39,297 nt of DNA from Bacteroidia bacterium (GCA_032111345.1 JAULUW010000288.1:1-39297), one strand, 5' to 3'; positions 23,144 to 31,469 are shown, counted from the first letter of the stretch. Notes: generated by a model not told the origin, from the sequence alone. A program made the numbers and translations.

Positions 23144-23179
23144 AAAAGGCCAGCTCCTCGAGCTGGCCTTTTGCTTTTT
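23144..23179 (+). terminator. Rho-independent terminator of the TonB-dependent receptor gene
   Basis: Stem ggccagctc (23148-23156) pairs with gagctggcc (23160-23168) around a 3-nt loop, followed by ttttgcttttt. Confidence 0.85.
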
Positions 23180-23408
23180 GGGGAAATTATGCCTAAGCTA
23201 TTCCTTAACTGAATTGGAACAATTTATTAAGATGCAACAATTTACCCTGCTACCCATCAGCTCGCAATCCCTCACCATCCTACTAAAATTGCCTTTTTTT
23301 CATCGCGATCCTTTTGATCGATATCTCGTGGCGGAAGCCCTTGCTCATGAATTGGTACTGATCAGCGACGACCTTCAGATTCAACCTTATTTTAATATTT
23401 CCCTTTAA
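23178..23408 (+). pseudogene. Remnant of a PIN-domain (VapC-type) toxin gene, C-terminal half only
   Basis: The translation ...FTLLPISSQSLTILLKLPFFHRDPFDRYLVAEALAHELVLISDDLQIQPY matches the conserved C-terminal half of COG3744-type PIN nucleases (LP.HHRDPFDR.LIAQA). The N-terminal ~65 aa with the first catalytic Asp is absent, and no antitoxin ORF lies upstream. The ORF begins directly after the receptor terminator. Confidence 0.6.
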
Positions 23409-25730: not shown

Positions 25731-26201
25731 TTATCCCACAAGTGCCGATAACTCGGGATAGAAAGCTTCCATCGGATAAATTCCCATATCCAAAACATCC
25801 GCCATATAAGCGGGCGTAATTTCCGTTTGTAGCGCAATTGGCATCACCAGGCGGAAGTAAATGCTACCGGTTTCAGGTGAAATTCCAAGACTTCCCAAAG
25901 GCAACTGAAAATTAATATCAATCAATTTTTCAGCAATCGAGGTTCTATTATCCGCTGAAACTTTCAGATTGTATTCCCAATACATCTGTAAGAAAACCGA
26001 GCCATCTAAGTCATCCCCCATTGGGAATACGGTGAAGTTCAAGGCCCAATCTTTGAGTTCCGGTTTTTCCTCTTCCTCATAGGGGTAAACCAGTAACACT
26101 TTAAAAGGAAGTTCATTGAATTCTTCAATAAATTGTGCTTTATAGCCCAATTGTAGAATTTGATTCTGTATAATTTCTAGGGTATTGTCTTCGTTAATCA
26201 T
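25731..26201 (-). CDS. Small acidic protein, YbjN / type-III-secretion-chaperone-like (putative cargo chaperone)
   Basis: 156 aa and strongly acidic: my hand count gives ~25 Asp/Glu against ~8 Lys/Arg. The segment AEKLIDINFQLPLGSLGISPETGSIYFRLVMP resembles the YbjN-family core (LN..L..G.f.ld..g.l.fr). The gene lies 10 nt downstream of the 619-aa gene on the same strand. Confidence 0.45.
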   Translation of the reverse strand: MINEDNTLEIIQNQILQLGYKAQFIEEFNELPFKVLLVYPYEEEEKPELKDWALNFTVFPMGDDLDGSVFLQMYWEYNLKVSADNRTSIAEKLIDINFQLPLGSLGISPETGSIYFRLVMPIALQTEITPAYMADVLDMGIYPMEAFYPELSALVG

Positions 26202-26211
26202 GATAGTAATT

Positions 26212-28071
26212 TTAAATTTCTCTTTGTATCAAAGCTTTGTAAAGCATGGTGATTTGTTCCTTCTGATTACCATTCTGAGCAAATAGCTTACCAGGACTTA
26301 CTCCCATTGCTGAGATATACATTTCTAATTGTTTGGCTCGTGAATCAAATGCGGCTCCTTTCAATGATTTCAAATTTTGTATTTGTTGAAGGAGTGTATT
26401 TACTTGTTTCATTCTATAATCTCTTTTTGCCGCGGTTGATTTACTCGCATCAAATCCACTGGTTATAACATCCGATTCACCGCGCGCCTCTTTAGCTGCA
26501 TGTCGGTCCCGACCTGCTTGTTTTGCAACACGTGCGGCAGGCAATGCCACTTTAACTGAGGCCGAAGCTGCTTTCAAACTAGCGCCTGCGATGGCTCCTA
26601 CTCCTGTTAAATTCGCAATAGAACCCGCTAGGTTGGCAAATTCAGCAACTAACAAGATAGAATTTCTAACAATTCTCTTTTTATTGGCTTCGGCAATTTC
26701 GCCTACCATTGCATATTCTAGAACTTCAGGATTCGCTGCTTCAAGGTCATTTTTTTGAACCGCAACCACTGCGGTCTTATTCTTCATTTTGAGAATATTG
26801 GCATCTAGCGCTTTCTTCTCATTAATCAACCTTTGTTTATCTGATGTGGATTTAAAGAACCCTGTTTCATCAGATGCCGTTTTTATTTTTTCCTCCAATT
26901 GAGCAGATTTCTCCTCATCTTCAGATATGGCTACTTTATAATTTGAAATGGTTGCATCGTATTTTCTAAGTTCCTCAGATTTTTCTTTTACCACCGAACC
27001 TGGATCTTTTTCTTTTGATTCTTTTTCGGCAATCATCTGTTTGTAATCGCGATAAGAAATCACCAAGTAAAATCCTTCCTTGATAATAGCGATACCAGAA
27101 AGTGCGATGTCTAATCCTGGAATTGCGGCTGTAACGCCTCCGAAAGTCCCCCCATCTAATGCTTCTTTGACTCCGTTTATTACGGTTAAGACCGATTTAC
27201 CGGTTTCCACAAAGCCTTGCGCAATACCCAAACCCTCAATGGCTTTTTCCCTCTTACTGCTTTCGTTGCGCTCTTTGATCGTGGTAACCAATTGTTTTAC
27301 GGTTAGGAAACCGGTTTTAATAGCACCAATGGCATCACCCACACTACCCGACCAAGCACTCACAGCTTCTGAGTCGGAAGCCACTTTAGAGCCTTCGGAA
27401 GCAACCTCATTGGTAAAATCGGACGCCGCACCTACTGTACCCGCAATACCTTCGCCCATTTCAAATCCTGCTTCGATTTTATCTAAAAACTCTTTATTCG
27501 GATCCATTAAAGTAGTCAAGGAATCTGACATGGCCTTAATTCCGGAGGCAGTACCCATAACACTTGCGGCTACGGCTAAACCCTTCATATCTTTTTGAAC
27601 GGTTTCAGACAAATCGTCTTCTTCTTTTCCTTGTGCCTCGTTTACGGCCTTATAACCATCTTCAAATTCATCTTTTGCATCACCAATAACCCCAAATGCA
27701 TCATCCACAACCCCTTTTGCCTGATCACCCACCGATTCATCATCGCTATCGTCACGGCCTGCAGAGATGTCCGTGGCGGCGCCCGTCATGGTTTGACTTT
27801 TTGCTGTTCTATCGGCCACTGTTTTCTTGGCACTTGCTGCCATTCGAGCGCCTCCAACCATTGCCATTGCACTGCCCGCAACTGAAGGACCTGCCGCTTT
27901 CACAGGAGCCGTAGTTGTTGGTGCCGAAGTACTTGAGGAATTTGCTGCAACACTTGTTACTGGATTGGCAGGCAAGGTGGTTGATGCACCAGAGGCAGAA
28001 CCTGAATTGGTGGCAGTATTCGCCGATGGTGTACTCGTGTCCTGTTTTTTTAATTCTGCAGTTAAAGGCAT
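26212..28071 (-). CDS. Large hypothetical protein, candidate eCIS cargo/effector (alternative: tape-measure protein)
   Basis: 619-aa uninterrupted ORF. Residues 10-100 are Ser/Thr/Ala/Pro/Gly/Asn-rich with no aromatic residues, and residues ~105-160 form an acidic patch. Two long hydrophobic Gly/Ala-rich segments (aa ~309-340 GGVTAAIPGLDIALSGIAIIKEGFYLVISY and aa ~471-510 SILLVAEFANLAGSIANLTGVGAIAGASLKAASASVKVAL) flank a charged coiled-coil-like stretch. No known family was recognised. Confidence 0.5.
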   Translation of the reverse strand: MPLTAELKKQDTSTPSANTATNSGSASGASTTLPANPVTSVAANSSSTSAPTTTAPVKAAGPSVAGSAMAMVGGARMAASAKKTVADRTAKSQTMTGAATDISAGRDDSDDESVGDQAKGVVDDAFGVIGDAKDEFEDGYKAVNEAQGKEEDDLSETVQKDMKGLAVAASVMGTASGIKAMSDSLTTLMDPNKEFLDKIEAGFEMGEGIAGTVGAASDFTNEVASEGSKVASDSEAVSAWSGSVGDAIGAIKTGFLTVKQLVTTIKERNESSKREKAIEGLGIAQGFVETGKSVLTVINGVKEALDGGTFGGVTAAIPGLDIALSGIAIIKEGFYLVISYRDYKQMIAEKESKEKDPGSVVKEKSEELRKYDATISNYKVAISEDEEKSAQLEEKIKTASDETGFFKSTSDKQRLINEKKALDANILKMKNKTAVVAVQKNDLEAANPEVLEYAMVGEIAEANKKRIVRNSILLVAEFANLAGSIANLTGVGAIAGASLKAASASVKVALPAARVAKQAGRDRHAAKEARGESDVITSGFDASKSTAAKRDYRMKQVNTLLQQIQNLKSLKGAAFDSRAKQLEMYISAMGVSPGKLFAQNGNQKEQITMLYKALIQREI

Positions 28072-28196: not shown

Positions 28197-29543
28197 TTAT
28201 TTTTTATTCAACTCCTCCTCAATCGCGTCAAGTAGTGTTTTTAAACGGATTTCCACCTTTTCAGCACCTACTTCACGCAAAATAACTTGTTTTACAATAT
28301 TCACAATTTGACCGCCCACAAGCTTATGTTCCTTTGCTATTAATCGCAAATCTATGTCCGTAGCTAAAGGCAAGGTACCTTCCAAAGCTTTTCTCCATAA
28401 CTCCCAACGGTATTCACCGTCTGGTGCCTCGAAGTAAATCATTTTTTGAAACCTCCTTAAAAAAGCGTCGTCTATTGAACTCTTTAAATTCGTGGCTAAA
28501 ATAAGCACCCCTGGATGATCCTCCATACGCTGTAGTAAAAAACCAACCTGCTGGTTTCCGTATCGCTCATTCGACTGTCCCGATTGCGAACGTTTGCCAA
28601 ATAGGGATTCACCCTCATCAAAAAACAAAATCCAATTCTTATTCCTCGCTTGCCTAAAAAGATTGTCGATATTCTTTTCGGTTTCTCCAATATACTTGGA
28701 ACTCAACTGCGATAAATCGATACGATATACGTCACGATTGTATTTTTTACCAATTAACCCCGCTACTAATGTTTTTCCTGTTCCTGAAGGACCATAAAAA
28801 ACCACCTTGTACCCTTCTTTGATTTTTCTTCCTAATCCCATTTCACCCAACATCCTTTTTTCGTATTCCAACCACAATTCTATATCCCGAATTTCTTTCA
28901 CAAGTTCTTTGGAAAGAACCACATCGGTCCATTCCATGTTTGTCTTAACCAATGAAGCGGGAAACTTACTTGAATAATTGGGCTTAGTAGCCACCCCTTT
29001 GGAAAAAATCTCCATATAATCGCTACTCAAGGAAAAAGGTTGAAAAGTTACAGGCAATCCCGGCTCTTTATAATCAAACAACAATATACCCTTTTCAAAA
29101 AGCCAATGTTCTGGGTTCAAACAATTCAAAACCAACATGCGTTCTTCCACAGATCCATTGGTCAATAAAAAAATGGCTGTTTCACCCGTGGGAATAAAGG
29201 GAGTTTGCGCCGTTCCAATAATTCCCCCTAAACGGGTTTCTGTATAATTAAAATCTTTGGCTGCTTTTAATATTGGATCAAATATTCTAGGCTTAAAATA
29301 CAAAGCCAATCCAATTACCACCAAACCCCGTTCAATGGCATTGAGATTCCAAGCACATACATTATTACTGTAAAAGCCGTTTTCTGATAATACCGGAGGT
29401 AAAATTTCTCCCTTATTTTCAATACGGTCTTTTAACTCCTCCGAAGCATTTCCAAGCTGATATTGAATTAAATTTTCAAGCCATATTAAGTCGGTTTCAA
29501 TATCGCTGGTGGATGATTTCGCCAAAGCCATGTTTATGTTCAA
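28197..29543 (-). CDS. AAA+ ATPase, Afp15/Pvc15-type eCIS assembly/cargo-loading ATPase
   Basis: Walker A FYGPSGTGKTLVAG, Walker B ILFFDEGESLF, sensor/arginine region LILATNLKSSIDDAFLRRF, and a ~220-aa non-ATPase N-terminal domain. It is transcribed divergently from the contractile-tail operon. Confidence 0.8.
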   Translation of the reverse strand: MNINMALAKSSTSDIETDLIWLENLIQYQLGNASEELKDRIENKGEILPPVLSENGFYSNNVCAWNLNAIERGLVVIGLALYFKPRIFDPILKAAKDFNYTETRLGGIIGTAQTPFIPTGETAIFLLTNGSVEERMLVLNCLNPEHWLFEKGILLFDYKEPGLPVTFQPFSLSSDYMEIFSKGVATKPNYSSKFPASLVKTNMEWTDVVLSKELVKEIRDIELWLEYEKRMLGEMGLGRKIKEGYKVVFYGPSGTGKTLVAGLIGKKYNRDVYRIDLSQLSSKYIGETEKNIDNLFRQARNKNWILFFDEGESLFGKRSQSGQSNERYGNQQVGFLLQRMEDHPGVLILATNLKSSIDDAFLRRFQKMIYFEAPDGEYRWELWRKALEGTLPLATDIDLRLIAKEHKLVGGQIVNIVKQVILREVGAEKVEIRLKTLLDAIEEELNKK

Positions 29544-29710: not shown

Positions 29711-30070
29711 ATGAATCCTGATCACTTCTTCAAACAAATGGAACTCCGAACGGAGCGGGAGCTGTATCGGAAAAGTTTCCGAGCCGTTACCGATTCTCAG
29801 GATTCCTTGATGAAAAAGTTTGAAAACAACAAAAAAGAACGCTTGAAGCAAGGTTTTGCTCGTGAGGTTAAATGGTTCTTTCTTTCACTTCTTCTCGCTC
29901 CGGTGCTAGCATTCATTTTTTATTATCTTTTTGCCAATGTTATACCCGATCAACTTATTGAATTGGCGATTTATTTCGACGGTATCGAAACCTTGTTTTT
30001 TGTTATTTTAGGATTTTGTTTTCTAAGCATTTATATCACCCGCCTGATTCTATGGGCACTTAAAAAATAA
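29711..30070 (+). CDS. Small 2-TM membrane protein, first gene of the eCIS structural operon
   Basis: 119 aa with a charged N-terminal ~45 aa, then two hydrophobic helices (WFFLSLLLAPVLAFIFYYLFANV and LFFVILGFCFLSIYITRLILWAL). It ends 5 nt before the DUF4255 gene. Confidence 0.55.
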   Translation: MNPDHFFKQMELRTERELYRKSFRAVTDSQDSLMKKFENNKKERLKQGFAREVKWFFLSLLLAPVLAFIFYYLFANVIPDQLIELAIYFDGIETLFFVILGFCFLSIYITRLILWALKK

Positions 30071-30075
30071 GCAGC

Positions 30076-30642
30076 ATGGTATATGATGTTTTAAACGCCC
30101 TTTGTGAAGAACTCAATGCCCATTTAAAATACCAATTGAATACGCCTGAAGACGTATTGGTTTTTTCAAATTTGATGGATATTGCGGGTGCAAAAGCACT
30201 GCAAACTGAAAATCAGATTCACATGCAACTCATTCGCATCGAAGAAGACCGTACGCTCAACCGAGCAGGTGGATTTAGAGGCCTTGCCGCCGAAGCAGGT
30301 CCAAGATTGTTTCACGCACACATACTTTTTGCCGCCAACTTTTCTGGCAAACAATATCCAGATGGCGTGAGGTATCTCAATTTAATCCTCAATTACTTCG
30401 TTTCCAACCCTACATTAAACAGTTCCAATGTAAGCGATTTGCCTTCTCAAATAGATTCACTTTCCATAGAACTGAACAATTTGGAAGAGCGCGAACTGAG
30501 TAATTTATGGGGAACGATTGGGGCCAAGCTTTTACCTCATTTATATTATAAAATCTCATTAATCCCAGTATTTAGATCCACTGGGTTTGAACGAACCGCT
30601 CCGTTAATTAAAGGTATTTCTCCCAATCTGTTAAGAAAATGA
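30076..30642 (+). CDS. DUF4255 (Pvc16_N) tail terminator/cap protein, Afp16-like
   Basis: MVYDVLNALCEELNAHLKY..., IHMQLIRIEEDRTLNR, HILFAANF and ERELSNLWGTIGAKLLPHLYYKISLIPV follow the DUF4255 pattern as I remember it (LWGALGGKYLPSVLYKVRL-type C-terminal motif). Confidence 0.78.
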   Translation: MVYDVLNALCEELNAHLKYQLNTPEDVLVFSNLMDIAGAKALQTENQIHMQLIRIEEDRTLNRAGGFRGLAAEAGPRLFHAHILFAANFSGKQYPDGVRYLNLILNYFVSNPTLNSSNVSDLPSQIDSLSIELNNLEERELSNLWGTIGAKLLPHLYYKISLIPVFRSTGFERTAPLIKGISPNLLRK

Positions 30643-31469
30643 GGTATATCCCATGGTTGCAAATAGAAACTACACACCCGGTTTTTCGTTCGGGATATAT
30701 GGATTGTTTGGCCTTTTTCCCCAGCGAAAATTCACAAACTTGGTTAAGAAATCACCGATGCATTTGGAAAATGTGGCAAAACCGCCTCATTATTTCTATT
30801 GAAGAGGATCCAAACAACCTCGGTCAGCCCAAAATTATACCCACATCATCAGCAATAGAACTTTCTATTTATATAGGCATTAACGATTTGAATTATGCTT
30901 TATATACGGAAATTGACGATTCCCCCATTCATTACACCCAACATCATTACTATTCTGATATACTTGGAACGGAAAGCATCAATCAAGAAATATTATTTAA
31001 TCATTCAGAAATAAGAGAGAAAGTTAAAGCCATTGCTTTGCCAAAACCCTATCAAAAAATGGGAGTTCTGCACGTCTTGATAGCAAAACCCCAAGCCTTT
31101 TTCTCACAAATAAAAAATAAATCTCCGCATCAAATTCGATTTCTTTGTGAGGAAAAAAAGTATCATATATGTTATGTAGTGAAAGAGTCACATCCTGCCG
31201 ATGGAATGCCTACATCTATCCATGAGGATACAGATAAAGTTCACTTCAATGAATTAGACGTGGAAAACGACGACTATACCTTTTTCATCTCAAAAGAGGA
31301 AATTCCACTATCCTCATTATCAGAGTTAAACTGTTATTGCAAAGGGCGTTACGAAGGAGATGATTCCGTCAGATTAAAATGCAAAGCTTCCAAATTTTCC
31401 TTAAATGACCTCACCACACATCCTACTTATCCACACAAGTATATTTTATTACGTGAAATAAAATACTGA
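30639..31469 (+). CDS. Hypothetical protein of unknown family (eCIS accessory/structural candidate)
   Basis: 276-aa ORF whose ATG overlaps the cap gene stop (ATGA at 30639-30642). It is rich in His, Tyr, Cys and Trp. No recognisable motif or TM segment. Confidence 0.6.
   Translation: MRYIPWLQIETTHPVFRSGYMDCLAFFPSENSQTWLRNHRCIWKMWQNRLIISIEEDPNNLGQPKIIPTSSAIELSIYIGINDLNYALYTEIDDSPIHYTQHHYYSDILGTESINQEILFNHSEIREKVKAIALPKPYQKMGVLHVLIAKPQAFFSQIKNKSPHQIRFLCEEKKYHICYVVKESHPADGMPTSIHEDTDKVHFNELDVENDDYTFFISKEEIPLSSLSELNCYCKGRYEGDDSVRLKCKASKFSLNDLTTHPTYPHKYILLREIKY

Follow-up and report, generated by a model that had tools for sequence, protein, structure and literature searches.

Work is under way to engineer extracellular contractile injection systems (eCIS) as programmable protein-delivery syringes, and natural cargo, its selection and its loading are known for only a few systems. 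In AlgoCIS, the two proven lumen cargos, Cgo1 and Cgo2, consist of an N-terminal domain (NTD) that is disordered, a DUF4157 domain and a variable C-terminal domain (CTD) (PMC8894135). Their loading requires the NTD and the AAA+ protein Alg15, while DUF4157 is dispensable and is absent from the cargos of Photorhabdus virulence cassettes (PVC) and metamorphosis-associated contractile structures (MAC); cargo leaders are similar within a system and not between systems (bioRxiv 10.64898/2026.05.27.728243). DUF4157 is highly eCIS-specific, is found N-terminal to toxin domains and marks toxins (PMC8213781). The PVC payloads Pnf and Pdp1 carry N-terminal signal peptides and are loaded by Pvc15 (PMC9054023, PMC11495950). 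Here we analysed one complete contig of 39,297 bp from a Bacteroidia bacterium (GCA_032111345.1, JAULUW010000288.1), referred to below as the window, in which a protein of 619 amino acids (aa) is encoded next to the AAA+ ATPase gene of an AlgoCIS-like eCIS. An earlier, sequence-only reading of the window had proposed that this protein is an injected cargo with a disordered loading signal, or equally well the tape measure of the particle. We conclude that it is probably a cargo (effector) of the adjacent eCIS. This reading builds on the cargo-type architecture of its relatives, the AlgoCIS-like sheath, the genomic context, a leader sequence shared between two proteins of a related locus, the fast evolution of the gene and the predicted disorder of its N-terminus, and further on hydrophobic segments conserved across the family and a small, acidic, cytoplasmic partner.

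Three genes form a unit on the minus strand: that of the ATPase comes first, that of the 619-aa protein second and that of a 156-aa acidic protein, the partner, last (Table 1). As the sequence-only reading had it, the protein adjoins the eCIS ATPase, a PF00004 gene lying directly upstream on the same strand. The eCIS structural operon runs divergently from this unit. The best match of the window sheath in the PDB is the AlgoCIS sheath 7ADZ (E=1e-133), and AlgoCIS is therefore the most relevant characterised system. The order of ATPase, candidate cargo and partner is kept in three loci of the window clade (L001, L010 and L011; relatives' loci are numbered with the prefix L and individual proteins with P) and in an outgroup (L012/L017). 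The nearest outgroup protein, P0020, is 41% identical to the window protein, and the window and L012 ATPases share 60% identity over their full length, including the N-terminal domain. In L017 the trio is intact, and alaS, gidB and a glycosyltransferase gene intervene before the cap genes. An earlier impression that the L012 trio lies away from any eCIS was dropped, as the longer contig L017 has structural genes 4.7 kb off.

The protein had been described as an orphan. It is indeed unannotated, with no match in Pfam (E≤0.01), PHROGs (E≤0.1), NCBIfam or the sequences of the PDB, but it is far from alone: we found 19 close homologues at 53-94% identity, and a profile of the conserved C-terminal ~455 residues, searched against 1.84 billion representative proteins, retrieved 257 clusters at 50% identity with E≤1e-3, 182 of them with E≤1e-10. 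These relatives, together with strong column conservation, establish that the open reading frame (ORF) is a real gene; the protein starts with M-P or M-A in all 15 aligned relatives. In the alignment of close homologues, the N-terminus is variable and rich in indels, and the body is strongly conserved from about residue 165. The same division holds across the family, in which the ~455-residue module is C-terminal in all relatives, preceded by a variable N-terminal region of ~100 to ~560 residues, for a total length of about 550-1170 aa.

The N-terminal regions of these relatives are informative as to function. The HExxHxxQQ signature of DUF4157 (eCIS_core) lies upstream of the module in 61 of 115 representatives, and Pfam confirmed the domain (PF13699, eCIS_core, formerly DUF4157) in all eight motif-bearing proteins tested and in neither of two motif-less ones. 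The window protein is thus a DUF4157-less member of a family of C-terminal domains that are usually attached to a cargo-type N-terminal architecture. Three further searches added less: tblastn against plasmids with a DUF4157-bearing relative matched the DUF4157 part only, a word-indexed homologue search with a diverse profile recovered few distant members, and a metagenome scan with a narrower alignment yielded six loci, two of them informative.

Compared with Cgo1 and Cgo2, functionally its closest known counterparts, the window protein belongs to the same eCIS lineage, as judged by the sheath, and similarly combines a leader, predicted to be disordered, with a folded C-terminal domain; its relatives display the full layout of NTD, DUF4157 and CTD, and both clusters encode a single-ring AAA+ ATPase. 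Unlike them, the window copy lacks DUF4157 and is encoded directly downstream of the ATPase. Its module contains no metalloprotease or other enzymatic motif, the CTDs having been compared by description only, and it has an obligate small acidic partner, whereas the text consulted describes none for the Cgo proteins. A second point of comparison is provided by the tape-measure-related effectors Sle1, Sle2 and Tme of Streptomyces, of which Sle1 and Tme are conceptually the closest and which by their descriptions (PMC13277306, PMC11126660) are helix-rich cargos, non-enzymatic in the case of Sle1. Sle1 and Tme share with the window protein a large coiled-coil segment and a gene beside the structural operon in divergent orientation. 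They also have a predicted hydrophobic helical hairpin near the C-terminus, its counterpart in the window protein being below the usual transmembrane threshold, and an association with DUF4157, fused (in cis) or encoded by a neighbouring gene (in trans), which is seen in the family and not for the window copy. They differ in phylum, in the position of the coiled coil (N-terminal in Sle1, internal here) and in the partner, which in the window is small, acidic and not a DUF4157 protein. Similarity to phage tape measures, as in Tme and Sle1, was not detected for the window protein in PHROGs (E≤0.1) or BFVD (E≤0.001). Finally, Pnf and Pdp1 resemble it in three respects: the N-terminal leader is hydrophilic and disordered (by prediction in the window protein), the locus encodes an AAA+ ATPase (PMC9054023, PMC11495950), and the gene adjoins the apparatus; they are enzymes, however, and have no dedicated partner gene, and the window leader is a Ser/Thr/Ala/Pro low-complexity stretch of about 100-160 aa.

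The composition of this leader agrees well with what the sequence-only reading had described. Residues 10-100 consist of 24% Ala, 18% Thr, 16% Ser, 8% Gly, 7% Pro, 7% Val and 4% Asn (73% for Ala, Thr, Ser, Gly and Pro together) and include no aromatic residue; the acidic patch said to follow is found at residues 101-165, with 33% Asp+Glu and a net charge of -14; and the charged stretch between the hydrophobic segments is found at residues 346-450, with 17% Lys and 14% Glu. Three proxies, namely composition, the predicted local distance difference test (pLDDT) of the full-length AlphaFold model (22-28 over residues 1-100 and 22-30 over residues 1-140) and TOP-IDP, which is above the disorder threshold throughout residues 1-160, suggest that the leader is disordered, as had been anticipated. 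It is also the least conserved part of the protein, with a mean identity among orthologues of 26% in residues 1-100, compared with 64-80% in the core.

The leader is a candidate loading sequence, and L018, an independent metagenomic contig, offers a comparison. There, the first ~60 aa of the family member (L018:7081-7260) and of a stand-alone DUF4157 protein (L018:11560-11745, minus strand) are 45% identical (E=4e-14) and have the motif F-Q-F-V-D-N-R-P-E-T in common. This matches the similarity of leaders within a system, as observed for Cgo1 and Cgo2. A related observation is that the pattern F-x-F-V-D-N-R-P-E-x-x-x-Q-x-x-L occurs in the N-termini of several Bacteroidota-type candidate cargos, with or without DUF4157 (the L018 pair, L005:10001-, L006:7003- and P0022). 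We considered "DNRPE" as a leader motif of the whole family and rejected it, since a regular-expression search recovered it in 4 of 115 representatives, and in an N-terminal leader in only one of these four; it is lineage-specific, and may possibly be a lineage-specific loading signal.

To place the rate of evolution of the gene in context, we compared the proteins of the cluster across three orthologous loci. The 619-aa protein is the fastest-evolving gene product of the cluster, its leader diverging more than its module (Table 1). This rate bears on the possibility that the protein is a non-injected accessory of the ATPase or of assembly, for example an adaptor for loading, a scaffold in the lumen or a factor acting at the membrane in particle release or anchoring, working together with its partner. 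Such a role would be in keeping with the tight order of ATPase, gene and partner, which is conserved in two clades, with the presence of the gene in every orthologous cluster seen, with the hydrophobic helices and with the absence of a recognisable toxin or enzyme domain. It accords poorly with the rate and with the family at large, most members of which are fused to DUF4157 behind a disordered N-terminus, the architecture of cargos; many family loci have no adjacent ATPase, and tandem duplicates exist (L006). We consider an accessory role quite unlikely.

Features of the protein itself had also led to the proposal that it is the tape measure, the equivalent of Afp14, Pvc14 or Alg14, setting tail length. 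The protein is long, all-helical and Ala/Gly-rich, and its gene adjoins the ATPase gene; like the tape measures of contractile injection systems (PF19268), which lie near the ATPase in the classical Afp and PVC clusters, it is largely helical. At 0.229 nm per residue, the value measured for Alg14, whose effect on particle length was followed in length mutants (bioRxiv 10.64898/2026.05.27.728243), 619 aa would correspond to a plausible particle of ~140 nm. It was further pointed out that the window is otherwise missing a tape measure; none is present on the contig, yet this gap is explained by the contig ending within the baseplate genes. Separate tape measure genes were found in relatives. The locus L004, taken from a Bacteroidia metagenome-assembled genome, shows synteny with the window starting at the ATPase gene. 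Past the gp25 gene, its structural operon goes on with genes for 1205, 235 and 836 aa and a further ORF, of 1441 aa or more, that is cut by the end of the locus. This ORF is 64% identical to P0173, a 1988-aa protein whose C-terminal 270 residues match PF19268 (CIS_TMP, a profile of the baseplate-binding C-terminal region; E=6.2e-30, 105 bits, cut-off 27.8 bits) and whose gene is the last in its own operon. Similarly, a 1505-aa ORF of L018 matches PF19268 with E=5.7e-96. With these two as positive controls, PF19268 gave no match in the 619-aa protein, and hhalign of the family profile A4 against P0173 returned a probability of 0.03%, so that the homology to Afp14-type tape measures, looked for with both, was not found. 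Moreover, the tandem paralogues of L006 and the orphan loci L005, L007 and L008 are unlike the behaviour of a tape measure gene, which would not be expected to duplicate or occur alone, and the orthologues vary in length from 570 to 632 aa while the sheath has 622 aa in all three orthologous loci compared. By these sequence comparisons the tape-measure reading is refuted, and we regard it as barely credible; the two readings do not fit equally well. More generally, a long helical protein adjoining the ATPase is not necessarily a tape measure, which is likely to be an annotation trap.

The tape measures of this eCIS lineage deserve attention in their own right. They are giant (1988 and 1505 aa; L004:17081-21404, P0173 at L009:110-6076 and L018:202-4719), and their PF19268 match is confined to the C-terminal part. 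At the Alg14 value of 0.229 nm per residue, 1505-1988 aa would span 345-455 nm, while AlgoCIS measures 121 nm. This leaves two possibilities, very long particles or a protein of which the greater part does not serve as a ruler. A comparison with the 2247-aa Streptomyces Tme suggests itself. The 276-aa gene between the cap and sheath genes of the window, considered for a time as a tape measure candidate, was set aside once the PF19268 gene had been found. Right after the tape measure gene lies a GH18 (chitinase-like) gene, at L018:4753-7062 and L009:7345-9231; it may encode an additional cargo, or else hint at targets that carry chitin. Similarity to cargo leaders was not evident in the first ~150 residues of both GH18 proteins, which we read.

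Examining the gene contexts of the family revealed four independent settings in or beside eCIS clusters: the window clade, L006, L017 and L018. In L018, the 1505-aa PF19268 protein, the GH18 protein, a 663-aa family member and its partner are encoded in one operon, with the GH18 gene between those of the tape measure and the family member, and the family gene at the 3' end of the eCIS operon. L006 carries two tandem paralogues (hhalign probability 99.8, E=1.2e-28) with one common partner, 4 kb from an eCIS operon and adjoining a stand-alone DUF4157 gene. Mobility, duplication and the orphan copies are typical of effector modules and not of structural genes. Overall, the earlier proposal of a cargo finds support in the relatives' DUF4157, the mobile module of gene and partner, the tandem paralogues and the L018 leader; what does not agree with it is that the window copy itself is without DUF4157.

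Table 1. Features of the window and identities of its proteins to their orthologues in three loci.
Feature	Position	Strand	Basis or remark	Identity to window orthologues
619-aa candidate eCIS cargo/effector	26212..28071	minus	Whole ORF including stop; ATG start	52-58%
Leader, aa 1-164				30-42%
aa 1-100, low-complexity Ser/Thr/Ala/Pro leader, predicted disordered, candidate loading sequence	27772..28071	minus	No aromatics, pLDDT, TOP-IDP	
aa 101-164, acidic linker	27580..27771	minus	Net charge -14; indel among orthologues	
aa 165-619, conserved all-helical C-terminal module, family-defining	26215..27579	minus	Profile search, alignments, AlphaFold model	60-64%
aa 309-340, first Gly/Ala-rich hydrophobic stretch, with P318-G-L-D-I-A	27052..27147	minus	Kyte-Doolittle 19-mer (KD19) peak 1.77	
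aa 346-450, Lys/Glu-rich antiparallel helical (coiled-coil-like) hairpin, length variable	26722..27036	minus	Confident in both models (pLDDT 83-90)	
aa 467-506, second hydrophobic stretch, helix-turn-helix with turn at T-G-V-G	26554..26673	minus	Hydropathy, model, conservation	
156-aa acidic partner, candidate chaperone or immunity protein	25731..26201	minus	Directly downstream of the 619-aa gene	69%
AAA+ ATPase, Cdc48/p97 clade, Afp15/Pvc15/Alg15 position	28197..29543	minus	PF00004 E=1.8e-26; best PDB matches Cdc48/p97	78-86%
Divergent eCIS structural operon, cut at contig end	29711..39297	plus	Gene order and library matches	
Sheath				92-95%
Tube 1				92-96%
Cap-adjacent 276-aa protein				84-86%
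Cap				76%

The C-terminal module was modelled with AlphaFold from a diverse alignment (maecc92eaf756), giving an all-helical structure with helices of 37-42 residues (pLDDT 68.6, predicted template modelling score 0.67); a first full-length model, built from 16 close homologues, was poor (pLDDT 49). Only two segments of the protein, residues 309-340 and 467-506, are hydrophobic, defined as a Kyte-Doolittle mean over 19 residues of at least 1.2, with peaks of 1.77 and 1.38, respectively. Both are conserved across the family, where the hydropathy peaks have medians of 1.63 and 1.41, in the same order. The sequence-only reading had described hydrophobic hairpins; there are two stretches, and in the better model a hairpin is predicted for the second alone. 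With the first, a single long helix sets in at the near-invariant P318-G-L-D-I-A (P318 conserved in 93% and I322 in 92% of the 115 representatives), and the second, the most conserved part of the family, forms a helix-turn-helix with the turn at an invariant T-G-x-G, flanked by the near-invariant basic residues K465, R466, R469, K500, R514, K517 and R521. The Lys/Glu hairpin between the two is anywhere between 11 and 209 aa long, depending on the family member. On these sequence features, membrane insertion by the two Gly/Ala-rich helices is a plausible hypothesis, though less likely than not. The sequence libraries and Foldseek gave no match to a known toxin, translocator or tape measure by sequence or fold, and neither colicin-type nor alpha-pore-forming domains were found by Pfam, NCBIfam or Foldseek against the PDB; in the PDB, the matches of the module profile were confined to coiled-coil proteins and helical designs (best E=0.0077).

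The partner is conserved together with the family gene. A homologous acidic protein of ~153-168 aa is encoded 3' of the family gene in every context examined: the window clade (L001, L010, L011), L005 with a DUF4157-bearing member, L006, L013, L007, L008, L012/L017 and L018. The L017 and window partners are 44% identical, and the partner profile A5 aligns with the L018 partner with an hhalign probability of 99.4. The window partner has an isoelectric point of 4.05 and no transmembrane (TM) segment, hydrophobic segment or signal peptide, and is predicted to be cytoplasmic. Its profile found no sequence match in the PDB, and a Pfam search found no tetratricopeptide repeat (TPR). Residues 74-151 align with positions 50-124 of the 126-position YbjN profile (PF10722), at a sub-threshold level (E=0.0035, 18 bits, cut-off 22 bits), and no link of YbjN-like proteins to eCIS was found in the literature searched. 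The earlier description of a small, acidic, chaperone-like neighbour thus stands as regards a conserved acidic partner, but its chaperone likeness does not extend to a TPR of class II, and the YbjN similarity is sub-threshold. Type III secretion system (T3SS) translocators with class II chaperones, and type VI secretion system (T6SS) effectors with Eag/DUF1795 proteins, each combine a cargo that has hydrophobic helices with a cytoplasmic protein that is small and acidic and has its gene alongside. The window pair, with its hydrophobic helices and small acidic neighbour, would resemble these by analogy only: neither sequence nor fold revealed a relationship, the partner shows no TPR, the helices are borderline and nothing matches the translocators, so that the likeness to T3SS translocator/chaperone pairs drawn by the sequence-only reading goes no further than that.

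Two roles can be envisaged for the partner. We slightly favour that of a chaperone, because the protein is predicted to be cytoplasmic, because one L006 partner serves two paralogues and because the cargo is hydrophobic. Alternatively, the partner may be an immunity protein neutralising an antibacterial cargo. Its gene is in all cases the next one downstream of the family gene, its sequence diverges more quickly than those of the structural proteins, as seen from its identity to the orthologues (Table 1), and some eCIS toxins have adjacent antitoxins (PMC8213781). However, it is cytoplasmic by prediction, very acidic and free of TM segments and signal peptides. Immunity proteins against membrane-acting toxins are usually membrane-bound or periplasmic. 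The sharing of a single partner by the two L006 paralogues also speaks against this role, and the weak YbjN-like signal points to a secretion-chaperone fold. We hence find the immunity role rather doubtful. Beside the partner genes, on the opposite strand, we observed genes of channel families: a Bestrophin-like gene just after the partner (L006:12445-13242 and L013:3147-3944) and a gene resembling pentameric ligand-gated ion channels just after the L018 partner (L018:9562-10680). If the cargo is membrane-active, these might be immunity or target-related genes.

Taken as a cargo, the 619-aa protein would act as follows. Its disordered N-terminal ~100-160 residues would serve as the loading leader, which the AAA+ unfoldase encoded upstream would recognise, threading the protein into the tube lumen. 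In the producer, the co-transcribed partner would bind the cargo, as a chaperone (slightly favoured) or an immunity protein; as a chaperone, it would keep the hydrophobic helices soluble and competent for loading. After contraction, the all-helical C-terminal module would be freed into the target, where the two Gly/Ala-rich helices, flanked by invariant Lys/Arg, would most plausibly insert into or perturb a membrane. A more specific version, in which the family is a widespread, undescribed class of non-enzymatic eCIS cargo with a helical membrane-inserting (pore-forming or translocator-like) module that needs a YbjN/secretion-chaperone-like partner for its solubility until AAA+ threading, is possible but unlikely.

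Several results weigh against this account. The window protein lacks DUF4157, whose motif is contained in none of the six frames of the window. Its leader is without the "DNRPE...Q" motif of L018, L005 and L006, and the contig offers no second candidate cargo for a comparison of leaders. The case for loading and injection of the protein is a comparative one. Within the window clade the gene is conserved rather than variable. As for the module, both hydrophobic stretches are borderline for TM helices, the second (residues 467-506) falling below the usual threshold, and a soluble helical bundle with the stretches as its buried core is equally possible on sequence grounds. Among PDB structures, Foldseek gave no significant match (best E=0.13, TM-score ≤0.2), and a pore-domain fold was not recovered; SmhB and YaxA appeared only at E of about 0.5-0.9 with probability ≤0.21. 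Against BFVD there was no match at E≤0.001, the top ones being generic coiled-coil proteins. The sub-threshold YbjN match is seen in only two of six partner homologues.

A further difficulty is posed by the orphan pairs L005, L007 and L008, which have no eCIS gene within 10 kb. These, together with a conserved small downstream gene of the sort typical of immunity genes, would suit a toxin-immunity (or toxin-chaperone) pair independent of eCIS, one that travels by another route or acts within the producer and is adjacent to the eCIS incidentally. Yet DUF4157, an eCIS-specific domain (PMC8213781), is fused to most family members, and the four contexts in or beside eCIS clusters are independent. 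In the N-termini that we read, without running a predictor, no signal peptide or secretion-system marker was noticed. In contractile systems it is common for effector modules to lie as orphans at a distance from the apparatus, as is established for T6SS. An eCIS-independent pair therefore appears very unlikely, and a cargo of the adjacent eCIS remains the probable reading.

The structural operon begins with a 119-aa TM protein, the Pvc16_N cap, the 276-aa gene and the sheath, continues with two gp19-type tube proteins, a 69-aa gene and a CIS_tube/LysM tube initiator, and then encodes a VgrG-like spike, PAAR and a gp25-like protein, after which the first large baseplate gene, for a protein of ~1205 aa, begins; inside this gene the contig ends (position 39297). 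The ATPase probably starts at the ATG at 29531 rather than at the listed TTG, which gives 448 aa: its orthologues have 444 aa, and their alignment starts at this ATG, four codons past the TTG (29531-29543). The 119-aa protein (29711-30070, plus strand), the first of the structural operon, has two C-terminal hydrophobic helices and equals the sheath in conservation (92% identical to its orthologues); no family was assigned to it beyond a weak NCBIfam match to MAG2810, and it might anchor the system in a membrane or act in its release. The 276-aa protein (30639-31469, plus strand), between cap and sheath, sits where AlgoCIS has its cap adaptor Alg16B; no family or PDB match was found, and homology to Alg16B was not detectable by phmmer. 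A 76-aa ORF (23178-23408, plus strand) resembles the C-terminal part of a PIN/VapC toxin, and at the same position the syntenic L001 carries an intact 138-aa PIN gene with a DUF2281 antitoxin-like gene, so that a toxin-antitoxin pair appears to have been degraded in the window. A scan for sigma-70-type promoters and terminators was uninformative on this Bacteroidia-like sequence.

Relative to known cargos, what is new here is an undescribed, widespread, non-enzymatic helical module with an obligate small acidic partner, no DUF4157 in this copy and a position behind the loading ATPase. The analysis delineates an extensive, so far unannotated family of probable cargos, with or without DUF4157, that comprises 257 or more clusters at 50% identity. 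If the more specific version with a chaperone-like partner holds, the ATPase, cargo and chaperone would form the first chaperone-assisted cargo-loading module described for an eCIS, with the window copy as a naturally DUF4157-less form. The family's conserved partner gene offers a testable handle on the chaperone need of hydrophobic or non-enzymatic cargos, on ATPase recognition without DUF4157 and on the action of helical effectors in the target cell.

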